Below, in pieces: positions 9,695-23,910 of a stretch of DNA of 32,000 nucleotides (positions are counted from its first letter, which is position 1; every line of letters starts with the position of its first letter). The stretch is from Microcystis aeruginosa NIES-2549. Lineage in GTDB: Bacteria; Cyanobacteriota; Cyanobacteriia; Cyanobacteriales; Microcystaceae. The DNA lies in NCBI RefSeq assembly GCF_000981785.2, contig NZ_CP011304.1:3690001-3722000 (forward strand), given 5' to 3'. A program made the translations under genes and the position numbers. Under the pieces are notes generated by a model. It was given only the letters and a program-made list of their open reading frames with translations. It did not search any database and was not told where the DNA came from.

Positions 9695-10019
9695 TCAAAA
9701 TTTTCACTAATGCTAAACTAATTATCGCCCCAACCGCCATAGCTGCAATTCCCCATTGACAAAAAGCCATAACCTCTAATGAAACCGAGCAAAAACAGTT
9801 TCTGGGACAATATGTGCATTCCCCCCGACGAGAATTGCCCTTGTCACCCATCGGCAGGGATGGATATTTCGCCATCAAAATTTCCCCACTCACCCTTGCT
9901 GAATTTGGGTATGTTAAAGAATAGGACAAAATTAACTTCTTGGTTAGAATAGGCAGTCATGCAAGAGACTTCGGCCGTGAGACGGCGGGCTATGGCTACA
10001 GAAGGGAGACGAATCAGCT

Positions 10020-13000
10020 ATGGTAAAACTAGAGGAACTTACTCGTGGCTCTATTGTTAACGGAATATTACCGAACCAAGCTGTCACCGTCATCGAGGCC
10101 AAGTGGCATGGCAGCGACACGGTAGAACTGACCTACAAAGATACCAACGGACAACCCTACACAGAACTGCTCTTTCGATACCGAGAGCCAACCCTAGAGA
10201 TTCTCACCGAAGGAAGACCGTGGGGTTTCGATGGCGATGGAGCTTTGCTGCGCCTAGTTTCCGAAGCCCACCGCATCCGGTTGGCCTACCTGTTTGACCC
10301 GCTTCTAGCCGTCCATACCTCTCTGGTGGAACCACTCCCTCATCAAATCACTGCTGTTTACGGTGAGATGCTCGATCGCCAACCTCTGCGCTTTTTGTTG
10401 GCCGATGACCCCGGGGCCGGGAAAACCATCATGGCGGGATTGTTAATTCGAGAACTCCTGATTCGAGGTGACTTAGCGCGCTGCCTGATCGTTTGTCCAG
10501 GCAGCCTCGCAGTGCAATGGCAAGACGAACTACATAACAAATTTCACCTTCCCTTCGATATCCTCACCAACGACCGCCTCGAAACGGCCCGCACCGGCAA
10601 CGCCTTCGCCGAAATGGGTCTGGTCATTGCTAGGCTTGATAAACTCAGCCGTAATCAAGACCTCCAGAAGAAACTCCAGCAGACTGATTGGGATCTGATT
10701 ATCTGCGACGAGGCCCACAAGATGTCCGCTTCGTTTTTCGGTGGGGATATTAAGGAAACAAAGCGTTACAAATTGGGCAAACTCCTCTCTAGCATTACCC
10801 GCCACTTCCTGCTGATGACGGCGACTCCCCACAACGGCAAAGAAGAAGACTTTCAGTTATTCTTAGCCCTACTTGATGGCGACCGCTTTGAGGGACGATT
10901 CCGCGACGGAGTTCCTGTTTCAGATACTTCCGACCTGATGCGCCGCATGGTCAAAGAAGAACTGCTCAAGTTTGACGGCAAGCCACTTTTCCCCGAAAGA
11001 ATCGCTCACACGGTCACTTACCCCCTCTCCGACCAAGAAGCGATCCTCTACAGTCGAGTCACCGAGTATGTGCGCGAAGAATTTAACCGAGCCGAAGCCC
11101 TGGCCAATAACGGGCGCAAGGGGACAGTCGGCTTTGCCCTCACCATTTTGCAACGCCGCCTCGCCTCCTCTCCGGAAGCCATCTATCAATCCTTGAAACG
11201 GCGACGAGAGCGGCTAGAAAAGCGACTCCGAGAAGAAGAATTGCTCAAGCGAGGCCAGTCGCTGGAGATGGAATTTGCCACCGTCCTTGACCAAGACGAC
11301 ATCGATGACGACTTTGAGGATACCGATAGCAGCGAGCGGGAGGCCACGGTCGAGGAGGTGGTCGATCAGGCTACAGCAGCCCGTACCATTGCCGAACTAC
11401 AGCTTGAAATCGCCCTGCTCAAAGAGCTTGAAGACTTAGCCAATACCGTCCGACGGAGCGGAAAAGACCGTAAGTGGGAAGAGTTTTCCCATCTTTTTCA
11501 GGATCAGGCGGAGATGTTCGATGCGGGAGGATACCGCCGCAAAATTGTCGTCTTCACCGAACATAGAGACACCCTCAACTACCTGAAAGAGCGGATCGGC
11601 ACACTCCTTGGCAACCCAGAAACTGTTGTCACCATTCACGGTGGCATGGGTCGGGAAGACCGCAAAAAAGCCGAAGAAGGCTTCAAGCAAGACGTAGGAG
11701 TACAGGTACTTCTGGCCACCGATGCCGCCGGAGAGGGGATCAACCTGCAACGAGCGCATCTCATGGTCAATTATGACCTACCCTGGAACCCAAACCGCCT
11801 AGAACAGCGATTCGGTCGCATTCACCGGATTGGACAGACCGAGGTTTGTCATCTCTGGAATTTGGTGGCCCACGAAACCCGCGAGGGAGATGTCTATCGG
11901 ACACTCCTCGAAAAACTCGAAGCCGAACAAAAAGCTTTAGGCGGACGGGTCTTTGATGTATTAGGTAAAGCCATTGCGGGAAAAGAATTGCGCGAACTTC
12001 TCATCAAAGCCATCCGCTACGGCGATCGCCCAGATATAAAAGCACGCTTAAACCAGGTCATCTCTGAAAAGCTCGATCAAGAGAGACTAAGGGAATTGCT
12101 GCAAGAACGCGCCCTAGCACGCGATTCGATGGATGCTTCCAAAGTTCAGAAAATTCGAGAAGATATGGAGCGAGCCGAAGCCAGAAGGTTACAGCCGCAC
12201 TTCATCGCCGCATTTTTCCTCGAAGCCTTCCAACGCTTAGGCGGCACCCTACGCCAGCGAGAGCCAAAGCGATACGAGATCACCAACGTCCCCGCCGTTA
12301 TCCGTAACAGAGACCGCTTTTTCGGGATAGGAGAGCCAATTCTCAAACGCTATGAGCGCATCTGTTTTGATAAAGAACTGATTAGTATTCCGGGGAAACC
12401 CGTTGCTACCTTTGTCTGTCCCGGCCATCCCCTGTTAGATGCCACTATCGATCTTGTCTTGGAACGGCATCGGGAATTACTCAGACGGGGAGCTATCCTA
12501 GTTGATGACAGTGATCCGAGCGAGGAAATTCGGGCGCTGGTGTACTTAGAACACGCCATTCAAGATGCTCGGCTAAATCCCGATGGTAGGAGGCGGGTGG
12601 TGTCGCGGCGGATGCAGTATGTGGAACTATTTGAACCACAGAGACACAGAGGACACGGAGAGAGGGATGCTGGGTATGCCCCTTATCTGGATTATCGTCC
12701 TTTGGCGGAGGAGGAGCGGGTGCTGGTGGAGCCTATCATTGATTCTCTGGATATTGGTAATGAGATTGAGAAGAAGGCTACCAGTTATGCGATCGCCAAC
12801 CTTGTCTCTTCCCATCTTCGGGAGGTACGGCAGCGCAAGGAAGAGCTAATTGAAAAGACCATTGCGGCAGTTAAAGACCGCCTGACCAAGGAGATCAACC
12901 ACTGGGACCATCGGGCGAACCAGTTGCGCCTACAGGAAGAAGCGGGAAAGACCAATGCCCGGATAAATTCCAACAAAGCCCGAGCCAGAGCCGATGAACT

Positions 13001-13544
13001 ACAAACGCGGTTGCAAAAGCGCTTGTCTGAATTGGAGCAGGAGCGCCAGCTTTCCCCTTTGCCGCCGGTGGTGGTGGGGGCAGCCCTCGTCGTACCGGGC
13101 GGACTGTTAGGAAGACTTTTAGGCAAGCCAATGTTTGCCAGAGACACTAAGCGCATCGAGCAGCTGGCGATGGCGGCAGTCATGGCGACCGAAAAAGCAT
13201 TAGGCTACGAGCCGCGGGATGTGAGCGCCGAGAAGTGCGGCTATGACATCGAATCGCGCAGGACCGGAACAGGCCGCTTACGGTTTATCGAAGTCAAGGG
13301 TAGAGTAGAAGGAGCCGATACGGTGACGGTGACTAAAAACGAGATTTGCCTAGCGTTGAACAAGTCCGAGAGTTTCTTACTTGCTTTAGTTTCCGTTTCT
13401 CCGTCAGAGGAAGTGCGGGTGAGATATGTGCGCCAGCCATTCCAGAGGGAACCGGATTTTGGGGTGTGTAGTGTTAATTATAATTGGAGAGAGTTATGGG
13501 ACAGGGGGGATATGATTGAACCACAAAGGCACAAAGGACACTAA
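10020..13544 (+). CDS. SNF2/DEAH-family helicase with C-terminal PD-(D/E)XK-like (DUF3883-type) domain; helicase component of an Hma-type defence locus
   Basis: 1174 aa. Helicase motifs: motif I GAGKT (10413-10427), motif II DEAH (10707-10718), motif III LMTATPHNG, motif VI QRFGRIHRIGQ. A coiled-coil region follows. The C-terminal module carries GYDIES...RFIEVKG (D at 13245-13247, EVK at 13290-13298). The last 8 codons and the stop (EPQRHKGH*) come from the first unit of the downstream repeat array. Confidence 0.93.
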   Translation: MVKLEELTRGSIVNGILPNQAVTVIEAKWHGSDTVELTYKDTNGQPYTELLFRYREPTLEILTEGRPWGFDGDGALLRLVSEAHRIRLAYLFDPLLAVHTSLVEPLPHQITAVYGEMLDRQPLRFLLADDPGAGKTIMAGLLIRELLIRGDLARCLIVCPGSLAVQWQDELHNKFHLPFDILTNDRLETARTGNAFAEMGLVIARLDKLSRNQDLQKKLQQTDWDLIICDEAHKMSASFFGGDIKETKRYKLGKLLSSITRHFLLMTATPHNGKEEDFQLFLALLDGDRFEGRFRDGVPVSDTSDLMRRMVKEELLKFDGKPLFPERIAHTVTYPLSDQEAILYSRVTEYVREEFNRAEALANNGRKGTVGFALTILQRRLASSPEAIYQSLKRRRERLEKRLREEELLKRGQSLEMEFATVLDQDDIDDDFEDTDSSEREATVEEVVDQATAARTIAELQLEIALLKELEDLANTVRRSGKDRKWEEFSHLFQDQAEMFDAGGYRRKIVVFTEHRDTLNYLKERIGTLLGNPETVVTIHGGMGREDRKKAEEGFKQDVGVQVLLATDAAGEGINLQRAHLMVNYDLPWNPNRLEQRFGRIHRIGQTEVCHLWNLVAHETREGDVYRTLLEKLEAEQKALGGRVFDVLGKAIAGKELRELLIKAIRYGDRPDIKARLNQVISEKLDQERLRELLQERALARDSMDASKVQKIREDMERAEARRLQPHFIAAFFLEAFQRLGGTLRQREPKRYEITNVPAVIRNRDRFFGIGEPILKRYERICFDKELISIPGKPVATFVCPGHPLLDATIDLVLERHRELLRRGAILVDDSDPSEEIRALVYLEHAIQDARLNPDGRRRVVSRRMQYVELFEPQRHRGHGERDAGYAPYLDYRPLAEEERVLVEPIIDSLDIGNEIEKKATSYAIANLVSSHLREVRQRKEELIEKTIAAVKDRLTKEINHWDHRANQLRLQEEAGKTNARINSNKARARADELQTRLQKRLSELEQERQLSPLPPVVVGAALVVPGGLLGRLLGKPMFARDTKRIEQLAMAAVMATEKALGYEPRDVSAEKCGYDIESRRTGTGRLRFIEVKGRVEGADTVTVTKNEICLALNKSESFLLALVSVSPSEEVRVRYVRQPFQREPDFGVCSVNYNWRELWDRGDMIEPQRHKGH
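12633..12656 (+). repeat. degenerate copy of the AACCACAAAGGCACAAAGGACAC repeat inside the helicase CDS, in frame
   Basis: GAACCACAGAGACACAGAGGACAC compared with the array unit GAACCACAAAGGCACAAAGGACAC (13518-13541). It is translated EPQRHRGH, close to the EPQRHKGH that ends the same protein. Confidence 0.7.
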
Positions 13545-13749
13545 GGGGATTAACCACAAAGGCACGAAGGACACTAAGGGGATTAACCACAAAGGCACAA
13601 AGGACACTAAGGGGATTAACCACAAAGGCACGAAGGACACGAAGATAGAAGAACCACAAAGGCACAAAGGACACGAAGATAGAAGAACCACAAAGGCACG
13701 AAGGACACGAAGATAGAAGAACCACAAAGGCACGAAGGACACTAAGGTT
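13518..13749 (+). repeat. tandem array, 7 units of 30-34 bp, forward orientation (core AACCACAAAGGCAC(A/G)AAGGACAC)
   Basis: Units start at 13518, 13552, 13585, 13618, 13652, 13686 and 13720. There are two linker types: TAAGGGGATT in units 1-3 and GAAGATAGAAG in units 4-6. The array begins inside the helicase 3' end and stops exactly at the ATG of the GxxExxY gene (13750). Confidence 0.95.
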
Positions 13750-14130
13750 ATGGATGAGAGGGCTAATGATTTATCTAAGGAGATTATTGGGGCGGCGATC
13801 GCTGTTCATCGGGAGTTGGGGCCAGGACTATTGGAGTCGGCCTATGAGGCCTGTTTAGAGTACGAGTTATTGGATAGGGGGATAGCGGTGGAGCGTCAAG
13901 TTCCTCAATCAGTGATTTATCGCGGTGTTAAACTTGATTGTGGTTATCGTCTCGATCTATTGGTGGAAAATCTGGTTATTGTCGAACTGAAAACTGTTGA
14001 ACAACTTACCCCCATTCACGAGGCCCAGTTGTTAACCTATCTCAAATTACGCCGGCTTTGGCTAGGATTACTGATTAATTTTAACGTTCCCGTTCTCAAA
14101 CAAGGCATCAAACGCCTTGTCAACAATTAA
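13750..14130 (+). CDS. GxxExxY-family protein (PD-(D/E)XK nuclease-fold, PDDEXK_3-like)
   Basis: 126 aa. It has the eponymous motif GPGLLESAY (G-x-x-E-x-x-Y) and a D...ExK-like core ([16 protein letters not shown]). The C-terminus (LLINFN) is typical of this family as I recall it. Confidence 0.85.
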
Positions 14131-14135
14131 TCTTT

Positions 14136-14192
14136 GTGTCCTTTGTGCCTTTGTGGTTCCTCAATCTTCGTGTCCTTTGTGCCTTTGTGGTT
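14136..14192 (-). repeat. two units of the same repeat in reverse orientation
   Basis: GTGTCCTTTGTGCCTTTGTGGTT occurs at 14136-14158 and 14170-14192. It is the reverse complement of the core in the 13518-13749 array. The repeat starts 5 nt after the GxxExxY stop and ends 12 nt before the methylase ATG. Confidence 0.95.
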
Positions 14193-14204
14193 CTTTTATC
14201 TCCC

Positions 14205-17198
14205 ATGACCTACCGTAAAAAACTCATTGAAGTGGCCCTACCCCTAGAAGCCATTAACGTCGAATCGGCATACGAAAAGAAACCAGGTATTGGTTCCCAT
14301 CCTAGAGGAGTTCATCTCTGGTGGGCGCGGCGACCTTTAGCAACTTGTCGCGCCGTTCTGTGGGCTTCATTAGTGGATGACCCGTCGAGTTGGCCAGATA
14401 AATTTCCCACCGAGGAGGAGCAGAATCGGGAACGACAGAGATTGTTCGATATATTAGGAAGAATTCATATTGAAACAGATAAGAAGGGAAACACGAAGCA
14501 GGTCGTAAAGGGACTGGTATCGTGGAAGGAAATCAATAAACCCACTTCCAACGTATTAGACGCGGCACAGCGAGAAATTGCGCGCTGTTTAGCTTGGGAA
14601 CGTGGGGAAGAACCCCCCACTAAACCGGATGCTATACGCGACTATATCGCTAAATATGCCCCCTCCGCCTATGACCCGTTTTGTGGTGGTGGTTCCATTC
14701 CTTTGGAGGCCCAGCGCTTGGGTTTGCAGGCCCACGGTAGTGACCTCAATCCGGTGGCGGTGTTGATTACTAAGGCTTTGATCGAGATTCCGCCCAAGTT
14801 TAAGGATAAACCGCCGGTTAATCCCGATTCTCGCCAAAAACAAAAGATTTCTTCCTGGGAAGGGGCCCAGGGATTGGCCGCAGATGTGCGCTATTACGGT
14901 CAGTGGATGCGGGATGAGGCTTTTAAAAGGATTGGCTATCTTTATCCGATGGTGGAAACCAACCACAAAGGCACAAAGGACACTAAGGTGATTGCTTGGC
15001 TTTGGGCCAGGACGGTGAAGTGTCCTAATCCGGCCTGTGGCTGTCAGATGCCTCTGGTCCGCAGTTTTCAGCTTTCGACGAAGAAGGGTAAGGAGGCTTG
15101 GGTTGAGCCTTTTGTGGGAGATGTTAACACTGAGGGGGATTTTAACCACAAAGGCACTGAGGACACAAAGGGGGATGATTTTGGTGTCTCTGGGGTGCCA
15201 CCCAAAATCCGCTTTGAGGTGAAGACGGGTAAGGGTACGGCCCCGGAATCTCCCAAGACTGGTCGAGGAGCTACGTTTCGGTGTTTAGCCTGTGGTCAGC
15301 CAGTTAACGATAAGCATATTAAGGCAGAAGGAATGGCGGGACGGATGGATGCTCAACTCATGGCAATTGTTGCTGAGGGGAAAGGTGGACGGATTTATCT
15401 TTCTCCTAACTCTGAACATGAAGCAATCGCTAAGAGTGCAAAACCAACATGGTATCCAGATGCTCAAATAAGCGATGATAGGCGGTCAATGTTCACACCG
15501 CTTTATGGACTGACGCATTTTCATCATCTTTTTACTCCCCGTCAACTCGTCGCCCTCACTACTTTTAGCGATTTAGTAAGTGAAGCCAGAGAAAAAATTA
15601 AAGCTGATGCAGTAGCCGCAGGAATCCCTGATGATGATTTACCTCTTAATGATGGGGGAATAGGCGCGACGGCTTATGCGGATGCAGTGGCGACTTATTT
15701 GGCATTTGTGATTGATCGATGCGCTGACTTTAACTGTTCTGTAACGAGGTGGGCATCTAGTAATGAAAAAATAATGAATTTATTTGCCCGCCAAGCAATC
15801 CCTATGGTTTGGGATTATTCAGAAGCTAATATTCTAGAGAAGGTGGTTGGAGGATTTGAGACGTGCAATGAATATGTTAGTGACTGTATCGCAATATTGC
15901 CGACAACAATCACATCTAAGGGAGAAGTGAATCAAAAAGATGCTTCCCAAAACAACTGTGATTTGTCGCTATGTCCCGTAATATCAACCGATCCACCATA
16001 TTATGACAATATAAGCTATGCAGATCTTTCAGACTTTTTTTACGTCTGGTTGCGCCGTTCTTTAAATTCAATCTATCCCAATCTTTTCAGCACTTTACTC
16101 GTTCCCAAAGCACCCGAATTAGTCGCTACTCCCTATCGTTTTGGGGGTGATAAGAAAAAAGCTCAATCCTTTTTTGAGGAGGGCTTAGGCAAAGCATTCG
16201 GACGAATGAATGCGATGGCTCACTCAGATTACCCTCTGACGGTTTACTACGCTTTCAAGCAGTCAGAAACCAAAGACAGCGATGATGACGCAGGAAATAC
16301 TTTTGTATCATCCACCGGGTGGGAAACAATGCTCGAAGGTTTGATTAAATCCGATTTTTCGATTGGCGGCACATGGCCAATGAGAAGTGAACAAAATGAA
16401 AGGATGGTAGCAACTGGCACAAATGCCCTCGCCTCATCTATAGTCCTCGTGTGTCGTCCCCGTCCCGCCGACGCGCCCAAAGCCAGCCGCCGGCAATTCC
16501 TCAACGAACTGAAGCGAGACCTTCCCCAAGCCCTAAAACTGCTGCAACAGGGCAATATTGCCCCCGTTGACCTCGCCCAAGCCAGTATTGGGCCCGGGAT
16601 GGCAATCTACTCCAAATACGCCGCTATCCTCGAATCTAACGGCTCCTCCATGGGTGTTCGCACGGCCCTGCAACTGATTAACCAGATTCTCGACGAATTT
16701 CTCACCGAACAAGAAGGAGAATTTGATAGTGATACCCGTTGGGCGCTGACTTGGTTCGAGCAGTACCAATTCAACGAAGGACTATATGGCAATGCAGAAA
16801 CCCTCTCCAAAGCCAAAAACACCAGTATTCAGGGCATGGTTGAAGCTGGCATACTAGAAGCAAAAGCCGGTAAAGTGCGACTACTCAAGCGCGAAGATCT
16901 TAAAACCGATTGGAAGCCAGAAAAAGATGAGCGGACACCCATCTGGGAAATCACCCAACACCTCATCCATACCCTCGATAAAAACGGCGAAACCGGAGCC
17001 GCAGAACTCTTGGCCAAACTAGGAAACAGAGCCGATTTAGCCAAAGAACTCGCCTATAGACTTTATAGCCTCTGTGACAGAAAAGGTTGGACCCAAGAAG
17101 CCATAGCCTACAATAGCCTCGTCACCTCTTGGCCAGAAATCACCCGCCTAGCCAACGAATATAAACCCTCCCCCGAACAACTATCCTTTTCTTTGTGA
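14205..17198 (+). CDS. DUF1156-type DNA methyltransferase (DPPY, N6-adenine/N4-cytosine class) with split Zn ribbon; methylase component of the Hma-type locus
   Basis: The start is moved to ATG 14205 (MTYRKKLIEVALPLEAINVESAYEK is the characteristic DUF1156 N-terminus). The 23 codons upstream in the ORF track are repeat sequence. Motif I DPFCGGGS at 14673-14696. Cys pairs CPNPAC and CLAC form the Zn ribbon. Motif IV DPPY at 15990-16001. The stop TGA (17196-17198) lies in the first unit of the downstream array. Confidence 0.9.
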   Translation: MTYRKKLIEVALPLEAINVESAYEKKPGIGSHPRGVHLWWARRPLATCRAVLWASLVDDPSSWPDKFPTEEEQNRERQRLFDILGRIHIETDKKGNTKQVVKGLVSWKEINKPTSNVLDAAQREIARCLAWERGEEPPTKPDAIRDYIAKYAPSAYDPFCGGGSIPLEAQRLGLQAHGSDLNPVAVLITKALIEIPPKFKDKPPVNPDSRQKQKISSWEGAQGLAADVRYYGQWMRDEAFKRIGYLYPMVETNHKGTKDTKVIAWLWARTVKCPNPACGCQMPLVRSFQLSTKKGKEAWVEPFVGDVNTEGDFNHKGTEDTKGDDFGVSGVPPKIRFEVKTGKGTAPESPKTGRGATFRCLACGQPVNDKHIKAEGMAGRMDAQLMAIVAEGKGGRIYLSPNSEHEAIAKSAKPTWYPDAQISDDRRSMFTPLYGLTHFHHLFTPRQLVALTTFSDLVSEAREKIKADAVAAGIPDDDLPLNDGGIGATAYADAVATYLAFVIDRCADFNCSVTRWASSNEKIMNLFARQAIPMVWDYSEANILEKVVGGFETCNEYVSDCIAILPTTITSKGEVNQKDASQNNCDLSLCPVISTDPPYYDNISYADLSDFFYVWLRRSLNSIYPNLFSTLLVPKAPELVATPYRFGGDKKKAQSFFEEGLGKAFGRMNAMAHSDYPLTVYYAFKQSETKDSDDDAGNTFVSSTGWETMLEGLIKSDFSIGGTWPMRSEQNERMVATGTNALASSIVLVCRPRPADAPKASRRQFLNELKRDLPQALKLLQQGNIAPVDLAQASIGPGMAIYSKYAAILESNGSSMGVRTALQLINQILDEFLTEQEGEFDSDTRWALTWFEQYQFNEGLYGNAETLSKAKNTSIQGMVEAGILEAKAGKVRLLKREDLKTDWKPEKDERTPIWEITQHLIHTLDKNGETGAAELLAKLGNRADLAKELAYRLYSLCDRKGWTQEAIAYNSLVTSWPEITRLANEYKPSPEQLSFSL
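14961..14988 (+). repeat. perfect repeat unit inside the methylase CDS, in frame
   Basis: AACCACAAAGGCACAAAGGACACTAAGG is 28/28 identical to array unit 13585-13612. It is read as NHKGTKDTK within ...[25 protein letters not shown]..., a different frame from that used at the helicase C-terminus. Confidence 0.9.
15131..15177 (+). repeat. second repeat-derived segment (linker plus unit) inside the methylase CDS, in frame
   Basis: TGAGGGGGATTTTAACCACAAAGGCACTGAGGACACAAAGGGGGAT resembles linker TAAGGGGATT plus the core. It is read as EGDFNHKGTEDTKGD and lies between the two Cys pairs of the Zn ribbon. Confidence 0.8.
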
Positions 17199-17700
17199 CC
17201 TTTGTGCCTTTGTGGTTAATCCCCCTTCGTGTTCTTTGTGCCTTTGTGGTAAATCCCCCTTCGTGACCTTCGTGCCTTTGTGGTAAATCCCCCTTCGTGA
17301 CCTTTGTGCCTTTGTGGTAAATCCCCCTTCGTGTTCTTTGTGCCTTTGTGGTTCCCCAAACTTTGTGACCTTTGTGCCTTTGTGGTTCAAAATCCCCCTT
17401 CGTGTTCTTTGTGGTTCAAAATCCCCCTTTGTGCCTTTGTGGTTCAAAATCCCCCTTCGTGACCTTTGTGCCTTTGTGGTTCAAAATCCCCCTTCGTGAC
17501 CTTTGTGCCTTTGTGGTAAATCCCCCTTCGTGACCTTTGTGCCTTTGTGGTAAATCCCCCTTCGTGTTCTTTGTGCCTTTGTGGTTCCCCAAACTTTGTG
17601 ACCTTTGTGCCTTTGTGGTTCAAAATCCCCCTTCGTGTTCTTTGTGGTTCAAAATCCCCCTTCGTGTTCTTTGTGGTTCAAAATCCCCCTTCGTGTGGTT
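17191..17700 (-). repeat. tandem array of about 15-16 units (28-37 bp), reverse orientation, with a 233-bp higher-order duplication
   Basis: Units have the form TTCGTG(AC/TT)CTTTGTGCCTTTGTGGT plus linker AAATCCCCC, TCAAAATCCCCC or TCCCCAAAC. Some units are shortened (TTCGTGTTCTTTGTGGTTCAAAATCCCCC). Segment 17260-17427 recurs at 17493-17660 with a single mismatch. Confidence 0.95.
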
Positions 17701-17748
17701 ATCTCTCCCAAATTGAGGCATTATAAAAATAACTCCTCATCAAATCCC

Positions 17749-20700
17749 ATGGCAATCAGCAATCGTGAACGAGTCGGACGCGCCCTAGATTTCCTCAGAG
17801 AGGGACTATACCCCTTCATTGAACGAGAAATGAAAGCAAGCTACGGCCAGAAGTGGCTCGCCGTGGCCTTAAGTTGCCTCCCTGAGAGCTATACGATCCG
17901 CAGGACAGGTGATGCCGTCCTCAAGGAAGACGTTTCGGCCCTGCTAATTGTCCTCTGGGAGCAGTGGAATGAAGTTTTTAAGAAAACCCTAGGCAGAAGC
18001 GATCGCTCTCTGGCCAGTGAACTAAGAGATGTCCGCAACGCCTGGGCCCATAACGATGCTTTCAGCCTCGACGATGCTTACCGGGCTTTTGATAGCATCT
18101 CTCGCCTACTGAGTTCGGTTTCCGCCGACACCCAAGAGGTGGAGAAGCAGAAGCAAGAAATCCTCAGACTTCGCTTTGAAGAACAGGCCCGGCGAGAGAC
18201 AAGGCGCCAAGCGATCGCACCGACGGAGGGACAACCGATGTCGGGATTGAAACCCTGGCGGGAAATCGCCACCCCCCACCCCGATGTGGCTTCCGGACGC
18301 TTCCAACAGGCCGAATTTGCCGCCGACCTCTGGCAAGTCTATCTCGATGAAGGCTCTGACGAATACCGCGACCCGACGGAATTTTTCCGCCGCACCTACC
18401 TCACCGAAGGACTCAAGCAACTTCTGACCAATGCCCTGCTGCGTCTGAGTGGTAATGGCGGAGAGCCGGTGATTGAACTGCAAACTAACTTCGGTGGCGG
18501 AAAAACCCACGCCATGCTGGCCCTCTACCATCTGTGCAATGCTTTGGCGATCGAAGATCTTCCCGGTATGGAGTCGATATTCCAAGCTCTGAACATTAAA
18601 AAACCCCCCGAAAATGTCAACATTGCTGTTCTGGTCGGCACTAAAGTCCAGCCTAGTGGCATCCCCCCCTACAAACCGGAACACAACAAGCAAAATCGCC
18701 CAGAAATCAAGACCCTGTGGGGAGAAATAGCTTGGCAACTCGGCGGCGCTGAGGGCTACGCTCTGGTTCGCAACGCCGATGAAACTTCCACTAATCCGGG
18801 AGACGCACTCAAAATATTGTTTAATCGTTTTTCACCCTGTTTGATCTTGATCGACGAATGGGTTGCCTATGCCAGGCAATTGCACGACAAGAACGATATT
18901 GCCGGCGGTAGTTTTGACACCCAGTTTACTTTTGCCCAAACCCTGAGCGAGTCGGCGAAAAATGCCCAGCAGACGCTTTTGGCTGTGAGTATCCCCGCTT
19001 CGGAAACCGTTGACGAAAAAACCGGAGAAGTACGGACTACAGATGTTGAAACCGGAGGAGAACGGGGTACAGAGGCCCTAGACCGCCTTAAAAATGCGAT
19101 CGGGCGCATCCAATCCCCTTGGCGACCCGCTAGTGCCGAGGAGAGTTTCGAGATCGTCCGCCGCCGTCTCTTTCAAACCACTACTGACCCGCAACTATTT
19201 GTCGCACGGGATGCGGTTATTAAAGCCTTCTCCGAGATGTATCGCACCCAGGCCCAGGAATTTCCTAGCGAATGCCTGGAGGCTGACTACAGACGCCGCC
19301 TGCGGGAAGCCTATCCCATTCACCCAGAATTTTTCGATCGCCTCTACTCCGACTGGTCAACCCTCGATAAATTCCAGCGCACCAGGGGTGTTTTGCGACT
19401 CATGGCCAAGGTCATCCATTCCCTTTGGGAGCGAGAGGACAAGAGCTTGTTGATCATGCCGTCCCACGTCCCGATGGATGATGCTCAGGTTCAGTCGGAG
19501 TTAACCCGCTACTTAGATGATAATTGGGTTCCGATCATCGAAAAGGATGTGGATGGCCCCAATTCTCTGCCCCTCGACATCGATCGCCAAAATTCCAACC
19601 TGGGACGCTATTCTGCTTGCCGTCGGGTTACGCGCACTATTTACCTTGGCTCGGCCCCCACGATTCGGGCTGCTAACCGAGGACTAGAAGATAAGAGGAT
19701 AAAACTCGGTTGCGTGCAGCCGGGGGAGACTGTAGCCACTTTTGGTGATGCCCTACGGCGGCTAACAGATCGGGCCACCTACCTCTACATCGATGGCAAC
19801 CGCTACTGGATTTCCAATCAGCCGAACGTCACCCGCACAGCCCAAGATCGGGCAAACCTGCTCTTTGAGGAGCGGTATAAAGTGACAGAAGAAATCGTCC
19901 GGCGCTTGAAGTCCGACCAGCAGCGGGGCGAGTTTGGAGGGATTCATATTGCCCCAGAATCTACTGCCGATATTCCTGATGATCCTAATCTCGGCGTGCG
20001 GCTCGTCGTTCTCGGTCCTGGGCAACCCCACAGCAAATCCGCCGAAGATAGCCCCGCTCGGCGTTTAGTGGCGGAAATTCTCAATCAGAGAGGGGGTAGC
20101 CCCCGCTATTACAAGAATACGCTTGTATTTGTTGCCGCTGACAAATCGAACTTGGAAAACTTAGAGAAGAACGTCGCCGGATATCTTGCCTGGAATTCAA
20201 TTGTGGCGGATCAGGAAACCCTCAATCTCGATGTTTCTCAGAATAAACAGGCGATCACTAAGCGCGATCAAGCCGACAAGGACGTAAGCCTGATCCTCAA
20301 CCAAACCTATAAGTGGCTGCTGGTTCCGGAGCAACCCGACCCCCAGAAAGGCATCCACTGGACTGATACCAACGCTCAGGGGGACGATTCGCCTATCGAT
20401 CGAGCCAGCCGCAAACTGGTTCATGAGGGGCAACTGATTACCCATTACTCTGGTGACAACCTGCGGATGGAGGCCCTCGACAAATACCTGTGGCGTTCAA
20501 CTAACCACATCGATCTGAAACGTCTGTGGGAGTACCTAGCGCAGTATCTTTACTTGCCCCGTCTCAAGAACCCGGATGTTCTGCTTCAGGCTGTGCGGGA
20601 GGGATTGGTCTCAATGCTTGTGCAGGAAAATTTTGCTTATGCAGAGGGCTGGGACGAGGCAAGGCAAAGATATACTGGTCTTGTCATCCTTCGGGATATC

Positions 20701-21141
20701 AACCCGAGTATCAGCAGTCACAGCCTTCTGGTTAAGCCTGATGTAGCTATGGGGCAGCTAGAGGCCGAGAAACCAGCTAACCCCCCGACCACTGCCGAGA
20801 CTGATTCGGTTATCTCCAGTGACCGTGATCGGCCGCCATCTTTACCCTCTGGTGTTGGATTAACTGTGACAGAGACTCCCGGTGATCTGGTTGAGAAAAA
20901 GCTGGTTCTGCGGAGGTTTTACGGCAGTGTTGAGATCGATCCCCTGCGAATTAATCGAGACGCTTCCGCGATCGCTGACGAGGTAATCCAGCATCTCACC
21001 CGACTCAATGGGGCCAGCGTTAAGGTAACACTGGAGATCGAGGCTGATATTCCTGATGGAACACCCGATGATGTGGTGCGGACGGTGACGGAGAATTGTC
21101 GGACACTAAAATTTAATAATCAGTCGTTTGAGCAGGAGTGA
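17749..21141 (+). CDS. DUF499-type P-loop ATPase with N-terminal Swt1-like HEPN domain; ATPase component of the Hma-type locus
   Basis: The start is moved to ATG 17749 (MAISNRERVGRALDFLREGLYPFIEREMK). The 48 codons upstream in the ORF track are repeat-array translation. HEPN Rx4H motif RNAWAH at 18034-18051. Walker A NFGGGKTH (GGGKT at 18493-18507). Walker B CLILIDEW. About 1130 aa, as expected for DUF499 proteins. Confidence 0.88.
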   Translation: MAISNRERVGRALDFLREGLYPFIEREMKASYGQKWLAVALSCLPESYTIRRTGDAVLKEDVSALLIVLWEQWNEVFKKTLGRSDRSLASELRDVRNAWAHNDAFSLDDAYRAFDSISRLLSSVSADTQEVEKQKQEILRLRFEEQARRETRRQAIAPTEGQPMSGLKPWREIATPHPDVASGRFQQAEFAADLWQVYLDEGSDEYRDPTEFFRRTYLTEGLKQLLTNALLRLSGNGGEPVIELQTNFGGGKTHAMLALYHLCNALAIEDLPGMESIFQALNIKKPPENVNIAVLVGTKVQPSGIPPYKPEHNKQNRPEIKTLWGEIAWQLGGAEGYALVRNADETSTNPGDALKILFNRFSPCLILIDEWVAYARQLHDKNDIAGGSFDTQFTFAQTLSESAKNAQQTLLAVSIPASETVDEKTGEVRTTDVETGGERGTEALDRLKNAIGRIQSPWRPASAEESFEIVRRRLFQTTTDPQLFVARDAVIKAFSEMYRTQAQEFPSECLEADYRRRLREAYPIHPEFFDRLYSDWSTLDKFQRTRGVLRLMAKVIHSLWEREDKSLLIMPSHVPMDDAQVQSELTRYLDDNWVPIIEKDVDGPNSLPLDIDRQNSNLGRYSACRRVTRTIYLGSAPTIRAANRGLEDKRIKLGCVQPGETVATFGDALRRLTDRATYLYIDGNRYWISNQPNVTRTAQDRANLLFEERYKVTEEIVRRLKSDQQRGEFGGIHIAPESTADIPDDPNLGVRLVVLGPGQPHSKSAEDSPARRLVAEILNQRGGSPRYYKNTLVFVAADKSNLENLEKNVAGYLAWNSIVADQETLNLDVSQNKQAITKRDQADKDVSLILNQTYKWLLVPEQPDPQKGIHWTDTNAQGDDSPIDRASRKLVHEGQLITHYSGDNLRMEALDKYLWRSTNHIDLKRLWEYLAQYLYLPRLKNPDVLLQAVREGLVSMLVQENFAYAEGWDEARQRYTGLVILRDINPSISSHSLLVKPDVAMGQLEAEKPANPPTTAETDSVISSDRDRPPSLPSGVGLTVTETPGDLVEKKLVLRRFYGSVEIDPLRINRDASAIADEVIQHLTRLNGASVKVTLEIEADIPDGTPDDVVRTVTENCRTLKFNNQSFEQE

Positions 21142-23762: not shown

Positions 23763-23806
23763 AGGAGTCAGGAGTCTCCGAGTCAGGAGTCAGGAGGGGA
23801 AGTCAG
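23763..23806. repeat. heptamer tandem repeat (AGGAGTC type)
   Basis: AGGAGTC at 23763-23769, 23770-23776 and 23785-23791, then AGGAGGG and GAAGTCA, interrupted by TCCGAGTC. Confidence 0.8.
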
Positions 23807-23882
23807 AATAACAGAATGACCTCGCGCACTGGGAAGCGGAACCCTTTGTGTGATAAGTTTAACTTATATAGGATCGATCAAT

Positions 23883-23910
23883 CTTTGTGTCCTTTGTGTC
23901 TTTGTGGTTC
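23883..23910 (-). repeat. solo copy of the island repeat, outside the island
   Basis: CTTTGTGTCCTTTGTGTCTTTGTGGTTC has the same core as 14136-14158 with one substitution. It lies in the mdh / methyltransferase intergenic region. Confidence 0.85.

Follow-up and report, generated by a model that had tools for sequence, protein, structure and literature searches.

Translated repeat units in two loops of a cyanobacterial defence methyltransferase: probably old passengers of a hairpin element

Introduction

How does a short repeat that fills the gaps between genes come to be read in frame, in one case letter for letter, inside a gene of a defence system, and what is it doing there? The question is raised by a stretch of 32,000 nucleotides of the Microcystis aeruginosa NIES-2549 genome (contig NZ_CP011304.1, positions 3,690,001 to 3,722,000), here called the window and numbered from its first letter. 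In it, hmaB, which encodes the DUF1156 N6-adenine methyltransferase of an Hma defence operon, contains two copies of a 28-nt unit that also forms arrays on both sides of the gene. The initial annotation regarded them as a mobile or recombinogenic intergenic repeat that had colonised the gene, with a recent event or ongoing gene conversion as the alternatives. We think it probable that they are instead near-neutral selfish DNA, carried as old translated passengers in permissive loops of a methyltransferase that they have not inactivated, in the manner of the Rickettsia palindromic elements (RPE).

Repeat units translated inside hmaB

The unit, AACCACAAAGGCACAAAGGACACTAAGG, has 22 matches with at most three mismatches in the window, where 100 shuffles give an expectation of 0, which rules out a chance resemblance to the repeat. 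One of these matches, at 14961-14988, is a perfect copy (28/28), the same as the units at 13519-13546 and 13585-13612; another, at 15144-15171, differs at three positions (25/28). In the translation of the open reading frame (ORF) at 14136-17198 both units lie in a single open frame, and the stretch at the second site reads EGDFNHKGTEDTKGD. The match scan and the translation agree with the initial annotation on two points, the presence of an array unit in frame at the first site and that of a second, diverged unit between two Cys pairs. The sites are composed as follows.

14961-14988, plus strand: site 1 unit, translated NHKGTKDTK in frame +1; the site comprises HmaB residues 249-261 (codons 14949-14987)
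15111-15206, plus strand: site 2 composite, HmaB residues 303-334
15126-15135, plus strand: partial-unit remnant in site 2, left after a strain-specific 9-bp deletion
15135-15143, plus strand: linker of site 2, GGGGATTTT
15144-15171, plus strand: unit of site 2 with three mismatches, translated NHKGTEDTK, with a short loop after it
about 15180-15197: decayed inverted arm of site 2

Site 1 stands just N-terminal of the first Cys pair, CPNPAC (HmaB 273-278), and site 2 between this pair and the second, CLAC (HmaB 360-363). Both are within the HmaB insert that follows core strand 2, the position of the target-recognition insert of the methyltransferase in the work where Hma was re-described as a DUF499-centred, BREX-related system (PMC12839542). 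The gene looks intact, given that the catalytic motifs DPFxGGGS and DPPY are invariant among the homologues compared, and with its frame open the earlier statement that the repeats had not destroyed the ORF holds. The common variants of the unit are free of stop codons in all six frames; in the variant with T at unit position 24, that of Microcystis, frame +3 contains a TAA, which serves as the stop of hmaA.

In an AlphaFold model both sites are predicted to be coil, with the lowest values of the predicted local distance difference test (pLDDT) between confident strands. At site 1, residues 255-257 have pLDDT below 50, between a helix (221-246) and a strand (260-272), and so have residues 308-330 at site 2, between strands 298-305 and 334-341. 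The model as a whole is poor (mean pLDDT 58.7, predicted template modelling score 0.35). It had been proposed that the units add Lys/Thr/His-rich surface loops next to the Zn ribbon; the model agrees in so far as predicted low-confidence loops flank the first Zn-knuckle, "surface" being a matter of local confidence only. A Foldseek search of the model against the PDB gave no match below E 0.5, at a model quality too low to trust, and a sequence search of the PDB with HmaB returned nothing.

Derived state and other occupants of the two loops

Loops were extracted from 120 HmaB homologues and about 80 translated metagenome loci. In non-cyanobacterial and in many cyanobacterial HmaB proteins, site 1 is occupied by a canonical loop, KVxLPKEYGGGEAT or a 24-aa variant (KVKLPKEYGGGEAT is an example), and site 2 by VIDRxQTPPx or IVDHxAKx (for instance VIDRSQTPPV). 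Such canonical loops are present in about 70 non-cyanobacterial homologues. Since they are unrelated to the repeat and occur both in distant and in many cyanobacterial homologues, the unit-bearing state is derived.

Aligned with these repeat-free homologues, the residues encoded by the units have no equivalents, and an ancestral native sequence is ruled out by the unrelated canonical loops of the about 70 distant proteins and by the presence of the unit in noncoding hairpins of many phyla. The notion that we are dealing with native HmaB residues, or with chance, finds some comfort in the length of the site 1 loop, which is close to that of homologues (13 vs 14 aa), but with 22 matches observed against none expected, and with homologue loops of unrelated sequence, it can practically be dismissed.

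The same lengths qualify the view of the units as insertions, which is right as to their derived nature and does not apply to site 1 as a net gain: there, 13 aa in Microcystis stand in the place of 14 aa, a replacement. Site 2, a decayed hairpin, measures 32 aa in Microcystis vs 10 aa in the canonical state (+22 aa). Replacement at the same length recurs at this second site, with ENHKDTKDTK (10 aa) in Planktothricoides and, as another case of this type, VVETHKGTEGTK (12 aa) in homologue P0041.

Across homologues the two loops are occupied by the forward unit, the reverse unit (SCSLCLCG) or both orientations, in other cyanobacteria by other repeat families (GNREEGTGN, SSLLTP, PSPxGEG), and in some homologues by arrays that reach 95 aa. 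Zero residues are conserved across these loop states, which argues against a function at the protein level.

Some further occupants deserve mention. In four homologues from other cyanobacteria (P0046, P0097, P0108 and P0118), site 1 accommodates an in-frame DUF559 endonuclease domain that is complete (PF04480, positions 2-108 of 109) and is flanked by translated palindromic repeats of the PSPxGEG type. The window itself has, at 23764-23800, a different short tandem repeat family, GGAGTCAGGAGTC, which is translated (SEEKRE / SSLLTP) at HmaB sites 1 and 2 in P0062 and P0115. Inteins occur in homologues P0051 and P0067, elsewhere than in these loops, and no Hint/splicing or endonuclease domain was detected by Pfam in the HmaB of the window.

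Age and variation in Microcystis

The site 1 unit is present in every Microcystis HmaB, about 40 proteins, at 77-100% identity, and the site 2 unit in the same proteins except P0037, where site 2 reads KINGQD. At the DNA level, site 1 is present and invariant in 15/15 Microcystis alleles; site 2 is readable in 14, all of which have the unit (14/14), as does the fifteenth, L008. Units at the same junctions occur in Roseofilum, Planktothricoides, Thermoleptolyngbya and uncultured lineages. Furthermore, in three loci (L002, L005 and L006) the only unit-containing feature is a hairpin at site 2, which is thus inherited along with hmaB.

The perfect identity of site 1 had been taken to imply either a recent event or ongoing gene conversion with the arrays. 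The recent event does not survive the comparison, given the same-junction units in all 15 Microcystis alleles and in other genera. Moreover, the block at 14565-15215, which holds both sites, is nearly identical among strains (98-100% in most), and as the whole surrounding block is so similar, the 28/28 identity says little on recency. Conversion retains one weak point: site 1 and four upstream array units have in common a T at unit position 24 (CACTAAGG) that is specific to Microcystis, other genera having A or G there.

Taken as an explanation in its own right, a recent insertion, or a continuing conversion from the neighbouring arrays that holds site 1 at the array consensus, would account for the 28/28 identity, for the common T24 variant, for the lack of unit polymorphism in 15 alleles and, as patch conversion, for the same-length loop replacement in several lineages. 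Nevertheless, the conserved junctions and the near-identity of the surrounding block count against it, and the deficit of polymorphism at site 1 (0/28 vs a background of about 9%, P about 0.07, 15 alleles) is not a significant excess of conservation. Site 2, for its part, keeps a signature of its own across genera (GACAC, "NHEDTKDTK"), unlike the local arrays, and occurs in loci with no other units. We therefore find this explanation quite improbable.

Site 2 bears the marks of decay and of continued change. In other genera (L081, L082) it is an intact in-frame hairpin, NHEDTKDTK-ENLRD-LCAFVV, with an RNA fold z of about -4.2; in the window, the solo arm at site 1 has z -0.25 and site 2, its second arm decayed, z -0.54. 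Strains are set apart at site 2 by substitutions and by three in-frame indels of independent origin (9, 18 and 3 nt), the indels falling in about 100 nt, and the remaining about 600 nt of the block are free of indels. In Thermoleptolyngbya the site consists of three tandem 90-nt copies.

The alleles of hmaB in Microcystis are sharp mosaics of alternating near-identical blocks (98-100% identity) and divergent modules (45-70%), as seen when the window is compared with L001, L004, L008 and L009; the divergent modules are at 14265-14565, 15216-15575 and 15696-16415. This pattern suggests module swapping in the target-recognition region. Allele breakpoints are in the conserved coding blocks CPNPACG, IRFEVKTGKGTAP and LFTPRQLVALTTFSDLV, outside the units. 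Of six, only one comes as close to site 2 as about 40 nt, and its position is in the conserved IRFEVKTGKGTAP block; those of P0037 are at CPNPACG and LFTPRQL. The idea that the units act as recombination handles is thus not borne out, the breakpoints being in conserved coding blocks rather than in the repeats.

An adaptive role of the peptides has to be weighed at this point: flexible Lys/Thr/His loops would tune DNA binding or specificity, and slippage at site 2 would provide rapid variation. Both sites indeed flank the first Cys pair in the insert assigned to target recognition (PMC12839542), site 2 is polymorphic in length by in-frame indels, and mosaics with swapped variable modules are what a diversifying specificity would give. 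However, no residue is conserved between lineages, and the same loops accept opposite-strand translations, other repeats and DUF559; an allele without the unit at site 2 exists (P0037), and the swapping of variable modules goes through conserved coding blocks and does not depend on the units. We regard such a role as very improbable.

The hairpin element and its distribution

The unit is 27-28 nt long and consists of three nonamers, AACC-ACRAAGG-CACRAAGGA-CACRAAG; it is the arm of a hairpin (inverted-repeat) element. A scan for its 23-nt core, AACCACRAAGGCACRAAGGACAC, with one genome per species, found the exact 23-mer at at least 120 loci in at least 10 phyla (L085-L204), in isolates as well as in metagenome-assembled genomes. 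The matches include Planctomycetota, Verrucomicrobiota, Acidobacteriota, Bacteroidota, Chloroflexota, Desulfobacterota, Gemmatimonadota, Actinomycetota, Pseudomonadota (Azospirillum), Bacillota (Pelosinus) and cyanobacteria. In Planctomycetota, loci with the unit also contain a related family, AACCGCCAAGGACGCCAAG, and a nested one, GACAGGATTTACAGGATCAACAGGAT.

Typically the unit is paired across a loop with an inverted copy, in an intergenic hairpin that mostly follows directly on a stop codon. Loops range from 9 to about 200 nt, with a further class of 377-496 nt that mostly encodes a PDDEXK_3 nuclease, and 54 pairs of plus and minus units with loops of 9-500 nt show terminal inverted repeats. 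The termini are AACCAC...GTGGTT, and the hairpin of L200 folds at -52 kcal/mol (z -12.8). Similarity is higher between the two arms of a hairpin than between arms paired at random; arm mismatches have no strand bias of the kind expected from selection at the RNA level (G.U 63 vs A.C 53). Flank matches are no better than in a displaced control, which gives no sign of target-site duplication.

The distribution is uneven. In five loci from five cyanobacterial genera, 113 units lie in 61 kb of Hma operon vs 3 in 63 kb of flanks, a 38-fold concentration, and the 626 kb of 72 Hma loci from outside cyanobacteria have none. The 120 scan loci comprise about 235 units, and of these the only genuine copies inside coding sequences are in Microcystis hma genes; the apparent cases outside Hma, in long ORFs, were all rejected as read-through, with no domain on both sides. 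The repeat was initially described as an intergenic one that had colonised a gene; a general, genome-wide intergenic repeat of Microcystis is at odds with this concentration in Hma operons and with the pan-bacterial core.

Two other origins were considered and discarded. The unit is not the coding N-terminus of its cargo, ATG preceding 16/137 copies and the three forward frames being about equally open downstream, and a phage origin is unlikely, with 1 match in 2.9 million viral contigs. Rfam 15 gave no match at the gathering threshold in the window; at an E-value threshold, eight intergenic hairpins returned only sub-threshold generic hairpin (miRNA) noise. In the literature searched there was no description of this repeat or of its DNA strings.

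Units and genes of the Hma operon

The host operon brings together SNF2-NOV_C, DUF1156 methyltransferase and DUF499 ATPase, the composition of Hma, or type-1 DUF499-centred BREX-related, systems. PADLOC assigns HmaA with 1707 bits, HmaB with 1210 and HmaC with 1082, and Pfam finds SNF2 and NOV_C in hmaA, DUF1156 in hmaB, and HEPN_Swt1 and DUF499 in hmaC. The annotated proteins of M. aeruginosa include a DUF1156 protein that matches the 997-aa product from 14205 at 100% identity. The Hma system was named by Payne et al. In Halomonas, whose hma region has been termed an insertion hotspot, HmaA was shown to give defence against T4 (PMC11232893). The features of the window are the following.

10020-13544, plus strand: hmaA, SNF2 helicase with a C-terminal NOV_C nuclease; its stop, TAA (13542-13544), comes from the first array unit
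12634-12660, plus strand: third unit inside a coding sequence, AACCACAGAGACACAGAGGACACGGAG, within hmaA, frame +3, EPQRHRGHG
13519-13747, plus strand: seven direct units with a period of 33-34 nt, ending 2 nt upstream of the PDDEXK_3 start codon
13750-14130, plus strand: gene of a small PDDEXK_3 (GxxExxY-type) nuclease (Pfam 7.5e-44), exactly filling the gap between direct and inverted units
14131-14192, minus strand: two inverted units directly 3' of the PDDEXK_3 stop, 3' arm of the cargo hairpin
14205-17198, plus strand: hmaB, DUF1156 N6-adenine methyltransferase; its stop, TGA (17196-17198), is inside the first reverse unit
17190-17700, minus strand: reverse array of about 13 units, including truncated ones, between hmaB and hmaC
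17749-21141, plus strand: hmaC, HEPN_Swt1 and DUF499 ATPase; 17749 is the probable start, a longer ORF from 17605 crossing repeats
23882-23909, minus strand: lone unit of the window outside the Hma operon, three mismatches, intergenic

The ORFs at 14136-17198 and 17605-21141 are probably extended artificially at their 5' ends through reverse units, with true starts at 14205 and 17749.

Units are translated within hmaA as well. In other genera, HmaA is read through units in frame +3 at three internal positions, of which the window has one. At this one, the orthologues of four genera retain the two arms (EPQRHKGH ... PLCSLCLRG), one on either side of a conserved AGYAPYLDYRPL segment; two more in-frame hairpins of the orthologues are missing from the hmaA of the window.

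The nuclease gene is found at the same position next to hmaA in three other genera (four in all), and the exact PDDEXK_3 protein of the window lies between hmaA and hmaB in 10/10 contexts listed. The length of the hmaA-hmaB array and the neighbouring toxin-antitoxin cassettes differ among strains. The gaps between hmaA, hmaB and hmaC hold variable cassettes bounded by units (PDDEXK_3, VapBC/PIN, PemK/MazF, TacAT, Uma2, HNH), which resemble a cassette array and differ by strain and genus (window 13519-14192; L001, L004, L081-L084, L205-L214). The G+C content of the operon (window 10001-21000) is 0.48-0.55 vs 0.40-0.45 in the flanks, which is consistent with horizontal acquisition.

Such a layout invites the thought that the units act in cis as nucleic acid and that the copies inside genes are kept for that role. 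Direct units, site 1 among them, and the many inverted units of a single polycistronic transcript may pair into long duplexes, which RNase III or the HEPN domain of HmaC would cleave or sense; or else the units may be binding or cleavage sites of the resident PDDEXK_3 nuclease. The enrichment in Hma operons of five genera would fit, as would the placement of units exactly at gene boundaries, where they give hmaA and hmaB their stops, and the constant presence of PDDEXK_3 between units of opposite orientation, both in four genera and in all 10 Microcystis contexts listed. The conservation of the 23-nt core across phyla would imply a sequence-specific partner, and the invariance of site 1 in the population and the mutual resemblance of arms point in the same direction. 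On the other hand, non-cyanobacterial Hma loci lack the units, so the system does not need them; the site 2 hairpin has been lost in Microcystis; the number and orientation of units at sites 1 and 2 vary freely among genera; and neither a G.U vs A.C bias in the arms nor an Rfam family was found. We consider this role unlikely.

A wider proposal starts from the element rather than from the operon. The unit would be the arm of an undescribed pan-bacterial hairpin family, whose autonomous form carries PDDEXK_3 (GxxExxY) and which has a sequence-specific partner; its dense occupation of the cyanobacterial Hma operon, precise at gene boundaries and extending to loops of HmaB and HmaA, would then reflect a cis role rather than an accumulation of junk, either in transcript processing or regulation or in a nuclease-guided capture of cassettes and rewriting of loops in the target-recognition module. 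As a whole, we deem this proposal unlikely.

Origin and persistence of the translated units

As selfish passengers, the units of hmaB would have had the following history. Before the Microcystis hmaB alleles diverged, hairpin elements would have been written into two loops of the target-recognition and Zn-ribbon region. They may have arrived by a templated, gene-conversion-like patch, or by insertion followed by trimming, which fits the same-length loop replacement in several lineages; no target-site duplication was found. The hairpins would subsequently have collapsed or decayed, leaving a solo arm at site 1 and, at site 2, an arm with a partial tandem copy and a degenerate counterpart; this second site is still changing by in-frame slippage. 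Their persistence would be favored by a stop-free unit, by a hydrophilic Lys/Thr/His peptide in the frame used and by loops that tolerate almost anything.

Several points weigh against this account. Neutrality is read from sequence, the "surface loop" from local confidence within a poor overall model, and the neighbor-joining tree used for gains and losses of units is blurred by recombination. The invariance of site 1 points, marginally, to constraint or conversion. Above all, random insertion followed by a filter explains neither the 38-fold concentration in Hma nor the lack of genuine copies inside coding sequences among the about 235 units elsewhere, and the passenger model does not explain a core shared across phyla together with a confinement to one operon. 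As these two features are left unexplained, a cis-acting or nuclease-linked role keeps a place in the discussion.

Relation to known repeats

The closest parallel is with RPE (Ogata et al., 2000; reviewed in PMC3184786) and with other repeats known to be fused in frame within genes. As in RPE, a multi-copy palindromic repeat is dispersed between and inside genes, the frame is kept and the host gene is intact, repeat-free orthologues exist, the protein parts concerned are probably permissive, and the whole is best read as selfish DNA. The differences are also clear. The arm here measures 27-28 nt and the hairpins start at about 65 nt, vs 105-146 nt for RPE; the copies inside coding sequences of the window are solo or decayed arms, not palindromic themselves; and in at least one of the sites the native loop has been replaced at equal length. 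The unit is concentrated in one defence operon, whereas RPE are spread over housekeeping genes, and its core is shared by many phyla, whereas RPE belong to one genus.

Miniature inverted-repeat transposable elements (MITE) and repetitive extragenic palindromic sequences (REP, and REPIN) are likewise short, noncoding, multi-copy inverted repeats that form hairpins, often after stop codons, and have longer relatives carrying genes. The element departs from MITE in that target-site duplication does not exceed the control, from REP/REPIN in that the unit has no GTAG/CGTC tag and is not species-specific, and from both in its cargo, a PD-(D/E)XK nuclease, with no transposase or REP-associated tyrosine transposase nearby in the loci examined. 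It differs from CRISPR in units set 5-6 nt apart, with no unique spacers of similar length. Among cyanobacterial repeats, the heptamers of short tandemly repeated repetitive sequences (STRR) and the small dispersed repeats (SDR; Elhai et al., 2008) are comparable as short repeats in tandem arrays of intergenic DNA. According to PMC5861425, SDR were reported only in Nostocaceae, and our unit is a triplet of nonamers, of another sequence, found far beyond cyanobacteria. Finally, with the intervening sequences of 23S rRNA (Coxiella/Leptospira type, PMC4990558) and with homing endonuclease genes it shares a selfish small ORF within inverted repeats, here PDDEXK_3. Unlike intervening sequences and inteins, the copies inside coding sequences of the window are without cargo, and hmaB is without a Hint/splicing domain.

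Concluding remarks

The 23-base core, which has neither an Rfam entry nor a description in the literature searched and is linked to PDDEXK_3, points to an apparently uncharacterised, widespread, small mobile or structured element. It also calls for caution in annotation, as its units lengthen or shorten ORFs, giving hmaA and hmaB their stops and adding spurious extensions at N-termini. Repeats translated inside genes were already known; here they mark two loops in the target-recognition module of a defence methyltransferase. Loops with room for almost any insert, from units of 9 aa to a whole endonuclease domain, are of use in engineering and in the study of how defence genes come to tolerate selfish DNA.

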